Program-made: the position numbers and the translations under genes
Assembly (NCBI GenBank): GCA_964426185.1
Contig: CAYRPF010000001.1
Location: forward strand, 45,767-57,026
Length of the DNA: 11,260 nucleotides
Direction: 5' to 3'
Origin: an uncultured archaeon
Lineage (GTDB): Archaea > Asgardarchaeota > Lokiarchaeia > Sigyniarchaeales > Promethearchaeaceae
The notes under the pieces: generated by a model
The model's input: the letters and a program-made list of their open reading frames with translations, nothing else
What the model was told of the DNA's origin: nothing
The model's database searches: none
Shown here: positions 6,462 through 7,180 of the stretch, piece after piece
How positions within the stretch are numbered: the stretch's first letter is position 1
Layout: every line of letters starts with the position of its first letter

Positions 6462-6522
6462 TTTTAAGATTTAACTCGTTTTTCATATTTTTTCCGAATA
6501 ATGTCTTGATTTAAGGGGAGAC

Positions 6523-6554: not shown

Positions 6555-6562
6555 TTTTATAC
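6555..6562 (+). promoter_or_regulatory. Putative TATA box for the ATP-cone gene
   Basis: TTTTATAC about 55 nt upstream of ATG 6617. T-tracts at 6479-6493 probably terminate the upstream gene, implying a separate promoter. A GAGG SD-like motif lies at 6604-6607. Confidence 0.35.
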
Positions 6563-6591: not shown

Positions 6592-6605
6592 TCAGTAATT
6601 ACTGA
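6592..6605. promoter_or_regulatory. Perfect 14-bp palindrome TCAGTAATTACTGA, candidate operator or RBS-masking hairpin
   Basis: Self-complementary. It ends 11 nt before ATG 6617 and overlaps the GAGG SD-like motif. Confidence 0.45.
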
Positions 6606-6616
6606 GGCACATCATT

Positions 6617-7180
6617 ATGTTTAAATTAAATTTTGATCCTAAGAAAGTCGAAGAAAAGCACATTATTAATCCTGAAGATCTCTTACCAAAAGAAGTAGAA
6701 ACCACAGATGGAAAAATCTCTCCGTTTGATGCGAAAAAAATAATAAAATCCCTGATGGTCGAAACTAAACTCGAAGAAGAAAAAGCAGTTCAAGTAACGA
6801 TAAACGTACTCCGAAAACTAGGCGGGTTGGGGTTGGAATTTATCGCAGCACCTCATTTACGAGAGTTAGTTTGTGGTGAATTAACGGCACAAGGATTACA
6901 TGAATATCGAAATCGCTATACTCGACTGGGAATTCCAATTTATGATGTTAAAAAATTGTTAACTGAACAGCGGGGCCAAAATTTTGCTTCCTTTCTAGCA
7001 GCCCAAGTGATAGAGCAATATGTTCATCTTGATAGGTTAAGTGAAGCCGCCGAAATTGTTATTGAACAAATTTCTCATTACACTAAAAATTTACCAGAAG
7101 AAGAGAGAACTTTAATTGAAAGCGCCATGGAAAATGCTCTAAAATTATATAATGAAAAAAAGAAGAAACATTTGGTTTAA
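6617..7180 (+). CDS. Stand-alone ATP-cone domain protein related to the N-terminus of archaeal class III ribonucleotide reductase (NrdD); no catalytic domain
   Basis: VETTDGKISPFDAKKIIKSLMVET...IAAPHLRELVCGEL fits the ATP-cone pattern (V..DG....FD..KI...L..ET...P.IRE.V...L). It is followed by YTRLGIPIYDV and AAQVIEQYVHL, which resemble the segment after the cone in archaeal NrdD. The protein is only 187 aa and has no glycyl-radical or catalytic Cys region. Confidence 0.82.
   Translation: MFKLNFDPKKVEEKHIINPEDLLPKEVETTDGKISPFDAKKIIKSLMVETKLEEEKAVQVTINVLRKLGGLGLEFIAAPHLRELVCGELTAQGLHEYRNRYTRLGIPIYDVKKLLTEQRGQNFASFLAAQVIEQYVHLDRLSEAAEIVIEQISHYTKNLPEEERTLIESAMENALKLYNEKKKKHLV

Follow-up and report, generated by a model that had tools for sequence, protein, structure and literature searches.

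The locus studied here raises the question of what an ATP-cone does when it is encoded on its own. ATP-cones are known as switches fused to subunits of ribonucleotide reductases (RNRs) and to NrdR. In the window (the whole 11,260-nt stretch of Lokiarchaeial DNA that was analyzed), a 187-aa ORF encodes such a domain without a catalytic body (its product is designated P0001; Table 1). The original prediction had described this ORF as having an apparent promoter of its own and no RNR gene in its surroundings; the ORF was borne out, and a Pfam and ORF survey of the window detected no RNR gene. The neighbors of the cone gene encode an M24 peptidase, an M1 aminopeptidase, a WD40 protein, and a small Zn-ribbon protein and, downstream and in convergent orientation, a MacB-like ABC ATPase and a 1010-aa FtsX permease. 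A conserved operon partner for the short gene was not found. The FtsX-type permease and its MacB/LolD-like ATPase are syntenic with the cone gene across genera. Regarding the promoter, a TATA-like box and a GAGG motif precede the ATG and are kept in two congeneric genomes (G205 and G089), which is consistent with a putative promoter role of the box. A palindrome overlapping the GAGG motif is not conserved in these two genomes.

Table 1. Positions of the cone gene, its parts, and its surroundings in the window (aa, residues of P0001).
Feature	Position	Strand	Observation
M1 aminopeptidase, 862 aa	2060–4648	+	TAF2-like Ig and HEAT matches, sub-threshold
Zn-ribbon protein, 113 aa	6120–6461	+	N-terminal membrane helix; C-terminal CxxC...CxxC Zn-ribbon
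TTTTTTCCGA stretch	6488–6497		kept in G205, as is the TATA-like box
TATA-like box TTTTATAC, putative promoter element	6555–6562	+	~55 nt 5′ of ATG; TT(T/A)TAT(A/G) box kept in aligned upstream regions of G205 and G089
Palindrome TCAGTAATTACTGA	6592–6605		perfect, 14 bp; overlaps GAGG before the start codon
GAGG Shine-Dalgarno–like motif	6604–6607	+	GAGG or AGGG kept in G205 and G089
Whole gene, 187-aa stand-alone ATP-cone protein (P0001)	6617–7180	+	ORF, ATG to TAA
N-terminal extension, aa 1–19 (MFKLNFDPKK...)	6617–6673	+	common to the 660-aa NrdD-like paralogs lacking the glycyl-radical domain
ATP-cone domain, aa 20–102	6674–6922	+	Pfam and fold matches (see text)
Invariant linker R98, Y101-T-R-L-G, P107, D110 (YRNRYTRLGIPIYDVK)	6908–6952	+	invariant columns; center of the predicted homodimer interface
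NxN-flap region remnant, aa 113–121	6953–6979	+	shortened compared with intact NrdD (..NENSN..) and 660-aa forms
Counterpart of the first long NrdD core helix (FASFLAAQVIEQYVHLDR), aa 122–139	6980–7033	+	second part of the predicted dimer interface
Family-specific two-helix tail, aa 147–187, ending KKKKHLV	7055–7177	+	no NrdD similarity by BLASTP, tblastn, or hhalign
FtsX-type permease, 1010 aa	8171–11203	-	unusually long; paired with a MacB/LolD-like ATPase

Database searches returned ~40 homologues of the same length (181–211 aa; 43–84% identity over the full length), and all named ones were from Promethearchaeota, with Ca. Harpocratesius and Ca. Lokiarchaeum ossiferum among the hosts. The Pfam ATP-cone model (PF03477) matched aa 27–102 of P0001 with an E-value of 6e-5 and a score of 23.9 bits, slightly short of the 25.8-bit gathering threshold; it matched 10 of 19 family members at E < 0.01 (best, 5.2e-7). 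The AlphaFold2 monomer model of P0001, built on a 19-row alignment, had a mean pLDDT of 69, with values of 79–93 in the cone, 55–70 in the C-terminal helices, and less than 50 for residues 104–119. When this model was compared with solved structures using VIA-align, it matched the cones of L. blandensis NrdB (Z 11.9, rmsd 2.1 Å, 84 aligned residues), P. aeruginosa NrdA (Z 11.4), and S. thermophilus NrdD (Z 10.9), with rmsd values of ~2 Å across 82–86 residues and with model residues 23–106 covered. The 47 best entries from Foldseek and VIA-align were, without exception, ATP-cone proteins, the fold of which is a four-helix bundle with a β-hairpin roof. Because of these matches to solved cones, the modeled fold of P0001 is that of an ATP-cone despite the sub-threshold HMM score, in agreement with the initial domain assignment. 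Sequence searches of the PDB (queries P0001, profile A1, and the first 175 aa of P0046) yielded no cone; cones were found by fold comparison only.

The part following the cone also corresponded to its first description. The segment YTRLGIPIYDV...EQYVHL is present and holds most of the 22 columns that are invariant in the short family (mostly R98, Y101-T-R-L-G, P107, and D110, and around P79, R82, E83, and C86), and the C-terminus, ending in KKKKHLV, is helical (helices 143–156 and 161–183 predicted). P0001 has no match to PF13597 and stops 48 residues beyond the first core helix. The Zn-ribbon and the glycyl-radical loop, both present in the NrdD of G204 and in P0046, are absent; C86 is the only Cys, and a four-Cys Zn-ribbon of the NrdR type is lacking. 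The pI within the short family ranges from 5.5 to 8.8.

How this architecture could have arisen is indicated by aa 1–146, which are 57–65% identical to the N-termini of Asgard NrdD-family proteins of 437–727 aa. The similarity extends to aa 146, where the first core helix ends and the barrel has not yet begun, which is about the point at which it had been predicted to stop. The catalytic core of NrdD is a ten-stranded α/β barrel. Compared with the solved class III enzymes of P. copri (8P23 and 8P28) and S. thermophilus (9D3X), the folds of which match at Z 9–11, P0001 has the same order of cone, linking segment, and first long core helix (the helix is described for PcNrdD at 123–141, and the flap was defined according to the same study; PMC11226230). 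Unlike these enzymes, it has no α/β barrel, catalytic Cys loop, Zn-ribbon, or glycyl-radical domain (GRD); furthermore, its NxN flap has been deleted, the roof has other residues in place of the K-R pair, and a helical tail of 40 aa is added. Both the homology to NrdD and the fold support the earlier view of an N-terminal module detached from an RNR of class III type, and it is very probable that P0001 is, by origin and architecture, the N-terminal regulatory arm of such an enzyme.

Asgard NrdD-family proteins come in more than one form. Intact NrdD (P0046, 727 aa; that of G204, 729 aa) contains a C-terminal Zn-ribbon, a SKITGYY glycyl-radical loop, a NENSN flap, and HIH. GRD-less forms (P0041, P0043, and P0044; 656–660 aa) stop short of the Zn-ribbon, lack the NxN flap, and show INID, IHID, or ITID at the expected HxH site; the NxN flap and the HxHD motif have a role in substrate binding in P. 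copri NrdD (PMC11226230). A maximum-likelihood tree built from the cone-linker-helix region united every short form with the GRD-less 656–660-aa forms in one clade (support 92/97), which joined intact clade-A NrdD (G204 and P0046) and the cones of NrdJ in a 100/99 clade with an open fork. The order inside the short/GRD-less clade is an open polytomy, and monophyly of the short forms is not decided by the tree. Deep-branching short members (P0030, P0032, P0034, and P0035) have a longer flap remnant resembling that of the 660-aa forms. In addition, three genes separate the 660-aa gene encoding P0041 from an orthologous WD40 gene 3.3 kb upstream; this WD40 protein and the one encoded upstream of the short gene in G211 are 39% identical (2e-72). 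G205 and G211 both retain the block of M24 peptidase, WD40, 113-aa gene, short gene, and convergent ABC and FtsX genes, and the fetched locus of the P0008 contig contains its WD40-to-FtsX part. Because of the tree, the series of flap remnants, and the WD40 synteny, truncation of an already degenerate paralog near the same locus is favored. In a first step, intact NrdD would have given rise to a paralog of 656–660 aa without GRD, NxN flap, and HxH motif; in a second, this degenerate paralog would have been cut down to ~187 aa near the same locus. The resulting layout would be the ATP-cone, the YTRLGIPIYDV linker, a shortened flap remnant, the core helix, and a lineage-specific two-helix tail. 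That relatives might carry a full-length nrdD at this locus, as expected for a recently truncated pseudogene, was therefore half right: an NrdD-like gene of 660 aa does lie downstream of the orthologous WD40 gene, but the truncation is old and selected.

A detached glycyl-radical ORF was found neither in the window, nor in the fetched loci, nor near the GRD-less forms. The sister family also encodes NrdD-like proteins of 596–660 aa whose C-termini fall short of the Zn-ribbon and glycyl-radical loop (L017–L021, sister-family genomes; also L008:6001–7983); both the NxN flap and the second His of HxH have disappeared from them, and they co-occur with intact NrdD of 713–722 aa in that family. Their fetched flanks likewise contained no detached glycyl-radical ORF. 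The tail of P0001, which had been considered novel, is specific to the family, and no similarity to NrdD was detected: BLASTP against the 660-aa form and a tblastn search with 18 tails in every frame of nine nrdD-type DNAs gave nothing significant, and when the tail profile was compared with an NrdD alignment by hhalign, the probability was 0.45% at best. The tail may have originated by frameshift or by internal deletion, neither of which was demonstrated by these searches.

If P0001 descends from the regulatory arm of NrdD, one candidate partner would be NrdD itself, and hetero-oligomerization of the two had indeed been proposed. The RNR inventory was taken from 14 genomes of the GTDB family representing 7 genera, which, as kin, are not independent and several of which are 74–89% complete; the assembly containing the window (G000; 3.26 Mb) is 92% complete. 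The short gene occurred in 10 of the 14 (genera g1, g60, g62, and g63), full-length NrdD in four (G204, G212, G162, and G202), and the two together in none, whereas class II RNR (NrdJ; RNR_Alpha domain) was encoded in all 14. In the sister family (135 genomes), the 187-aa type was absent. Canonical NrdD was found neither in the window's own genome nor in the closed genomes carrying the short gene (G205, G206 [L. ossiferum], and G211), which is why pairing with NrdD cannot be the role of P0001 here; judged by these gene inventories, control of NrdD in trans can be ruled out for this genome. No match to the NrdG activase model (TIGR02495) reached the cut-off in any of the 14 genomes, those with NrdD included. 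The short gene would thus be kept by purifying selection in Promethearchaeaceae genera that do without full NrdD and rely on class II NrdJ. The class II enzyme of the own genome (867 aa) is encoded on a separate contig and has a cone-like N-terminus of its own. This NrdJ-type protein (L007:4598–7201, plus strand; G000 contig C6) shows weak leucine-rich-repeat matches in its C-terminal region (aa ~790–846); class II RNR frames are 866–892 aa long in G205, G206, and G207 versus 758–770 aa in G204, G203, G210, and G211.

An alternative partner is a second copy of P0001. Prediction of a two-copy complex gave ipSAE values of 0.68, 0.68, and 0.74 in three runs, compared with 0.00 for the best of three controls. 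Among proteins solved as same-chain pairs, 20 of 30 attained this ipSAE mark, versus 1 of 23 solved as single chains; the prediction for P0001 used an own alignment, which makes these counts approximate. In the homodimer runs, contact agreement was at least 56% and partner pLDDT at least 65; solved dimers of cones and of NrdD exist, and the score may partly reflect likeness to them. The predicted symmetric interface comprises residues 98–112 and 123–139 together with cone residues 49 and 79–95, and 13 of the 22 invariant columns fall within its 42 residues (Fisher p 7.6e-5). Such an interface would explain why the linker is the most conserved part of the protein and why it is disordered in the monomer model. 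A symmetric homodimer formed via linker and core helix is, on the basis of this model, rather probable.

The first strand of the roof hairpin reads VETTDG in P0001 and VENTRG in other family members in place of the usual V-x-K-R-D-G, so the loss of the first-strand basic residues noted at the outset applies to the family (T-T or N-T for K-R). The pair contacts phosphate and corresponds to Lys7/Arg8 in PcNrdD (PMC11226230). A changed ligand specificity as a mark of the short protein, which had been suggested from this replacement, was not upheld, as intact NrdD of the same clade already has VENTRG. In the short family, the residue at the site of E. coli NrdA E15 is variable. A basic residue is usually retained at position 31 or 33 (TRGE or TDGK), and R98 and R103, arginines of the C-terminal helix, are invariant. 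That P0001 acts as a small dimeric sensor of adenine nucleotides (ATP/dATP) and thereby as a putative nucleotide-sensing regulator is plausible, if somewhat short of probable.

A precedent for a small non-catalytic ATP-cone protein is NrdR, the cones of which match the P0001 model with Z ~10–11.3 (9GEX, 9FVR, and 7P37). NrdR works by nucleotide-dependent oligomerization (PMC9110341), and by analogy P0001 may employ this mechanism too. It differs from NrdR in having no Zn-ribbon or other DNA-binding domain, a single Cys, and an NrdD-type cone with the YTRLG linker; the NrdR-like sensor role originally envisaged is not supported, given the lack of a DNA-binding domain. P0001 would rather act through nucleotide-dependent self-association or by docking onto proteins with the same type of cone, such as NrdJ or a winged helix-turn-helix (wHTH)-cone-NrdD–like protein. 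The latter, 778 aa in the own genome (L003:2928–5264, plus strand; G000 contig C15), is encoded just downstream of pyrB and consists of a winged-helix domain (DUF7347/HTH_20), a VRTS-type cone, a LTRLGVPPFD linker, and a degenerate NrdD-like body without HxH. It measures 710–804 aa in the family, matches widespread archaeal DUF7347-cone-NRDD clusters in the ESM Atlas and, from its domains, looks like a transcription factor on an RNR chassis. Co-occurrence singled out no partner: regardless of the short gene, NrdJ was present in all 14 family genomes and the wHTH-cone-NrdD–like protein in 12 of them.

The same observations can be read as those of a nucleotide-independent scaffold, in which ligand binding has been lost and P0001 serves as a dimeric adaptor or assembly factor, for example, for the wHTH-cone-NrdD–like protein. 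The K-R pair is replaced, the strongest conservation maps to the predicted protein-protein interface and not to the roof hairpin, and the wHTH-type protein, which has the LTRLG.P.FD linker and the EQY..LL helix in common with P0001, is present in all closed family genomes. However, the occurrence of this hairpin in intact, presumably regulated NrdD of the same clade means that binding need not be lost, the basic residues kept in the hairpin and in the C-terminal helix speak against such a loss as well, and the wHTH protein also occurs where the short gene does not. A pure scaffold is consequently considered rather unlikely and a nucleotide sensor the better, albeit tentative, description.

If the Zn-ribbon protein encoded upstream supplied what the cone protein lacks, the two genes together could constitute a nucleotide-responsive regulator analogous to NrdR, which itself is a Zn-ribbon fused to an ATP-cone (PMC12176259). 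A Zn-ribbon gene of ~100 aa is indeed located directly upstream on the same strand in G000, G205, G089, G211, and the P0008 contig. However, the protein encoded here carries a membrane helix at its N-terminus, G203 lacks the gene between its WD40 and cone genes, and the best Zn-ribbon match in L. ossiferum lies ~4 kb away within a larger gene. Moreover, the adjacency is part of a block that is syntenic as a whole, and the two genes are 155 nt apart, with the second having its own TATA-like box; such a two-gene regulator is therefore very unlikely. The versions of the ~100-aa Zn-ribbon protein in g63 have no membrane helix and contain a repeated DEYIGRM(N/D)TP motif.

Being a fragment of a larger enzyme gene, from a parent lineage already shedding motifs, the short gene could also be a decaying relic, truncated and functionless. 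This is contradicted by the length of the gene, kept across four genera at the identities given above, by the conserved start region and TATA-like box, and by the complete absence of internal stops in all 10 carrier genomes. dN ranged from 0.08 to 0.4 with dS saturated in nearly all pairs of short genes; the least saturated pair (G211 versus the P0008 contig) had an omega of 0.09 overall and 0.23 in the tail, and tail omega was 0.2–0.45 where computable. The dN/dS comparison that had been suggested for the homologues thus points to purifying selection (omega ~0.1). Because of the saturated dS, the low omega, and the lack of internal stops in ten genomes, the short gene is, by these sequence measures, not a pseudogene, and decay is highly improbable. 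That P0001 is the detachable regulatory subunit of a cone-less NrdD encoded elsewhere can be dismissed almost entirely, as no cone-less NrdD body was found in the own genome with PF13597, TIGR02487, or the 660-aa protein, the sole NrdD-like protein there has its own cone and degenerate motifs, and the closed genomes G206 and G211 contain no PF13597 match at all.

P0001 has company among other stand-alone cones. Annotated but uncharacterized "ATP cone domain-containing proteins" of similar size and cone-only composition include bacterial clusters of 119–200 aa, which are leads only (feature score 0.84–0.86, below the reliable range), and a 141-aa Promethearchaeota cluster in the ESM Atlas; a Lokiarchaeial family of 144 aa has the YTRLG.P.YD linker in common with the 187-aa family. 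The latter is set apart from the other stand-alone cones by its extra tail and its traceable descent from a GRD-less NrdD paralog. In the sister family, the genes of the 144-aa cone family (L014:1498–1932 and flanks) occupy a conserved chromosomal spot, flanked by a Vps28-like (ESCRT-I) gene and a 140-aa gene on one side and by a gene for a 4Fe-4S protein on the other. No paper on stand-alone Asgard ATP-cones or on locus tag NEF87_001764 was found in the literature.

An exhaustive profile search returned 1016 representative clusters at E ≤ 0.001, and among the best 150 of these, leaving out those already collected, 66 of 144 were shorter than 260 aa. Aligned forms of ~130 aa consist of the cone, YTR(L/I)G.P..D, and one helix with an EY..V..LI motif, which aligns with the core helix of P0001, and they end just past this helix. 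Mini-proteins of this layout, with ~120–160 aa, form a large set (P0047–P0190; L056 and L058). A 134-aa member (P0129, L058) is encoded among small unannotated genes together with AEP primase-like and Sak4-like proteins, a context that suggests a mobile element or virus of Asgard archaea. A viral origin of the mini-cones was considered and rejected, as scans of IMG/VR yielded no relatives and PHROGs contained no match for P0001 or P0060. One may speculate that cone, YTRLG linker, and first core helix together are an autonomous dimerizing and nucleotide-sensing module which, as a free protein, would act in trans through mixed dimers or cone-cone docking on NrdD, GRD-less NrdD-like paralogs, wHTH-cone-NrdD–like regulators, or NrdJ, in Asgard archaea and possibly their mobile elements; in this generality, the idea is unlikely to hold. 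For P0001 itself, a free-standing descendant of the NrdD arm that is dimeric and serves as sensor or adaptor is the best overall explanation, although the chances of it being correct in full are no better than even.

In this family, the switch has outlived its enzyme: the ATP-cone arm is found on its own and remained under selection after NrdD was lost, where it probably performs a non-catalytic job. Intact NrdD, the GRD-less paralog, and the 187-aa protein form a stepwise series that neatly illustrates reductive evolution, and the short protein is part of a larger, apparently undescribed set of mini-proteins derived from the NrdD arm. Because the family includes the cultured L. ossiferum, its function can be addressed at the bench. 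If P0001 does not sense nucleotides, it would clearly exemplify how the regulatory arm of an enzyme can be put to new use as a dimeric scaffold. If it senses ATP/dATP and acts in trans, it would add a new layer of control over the dNTP supply in the archaeal lineage closest to eukaryotes, and, should the reading as a trans-acting module be true, it would be the first ATP-cone regulator of dNTP supply to act in trans, persisting after the loss of its source enzyme.
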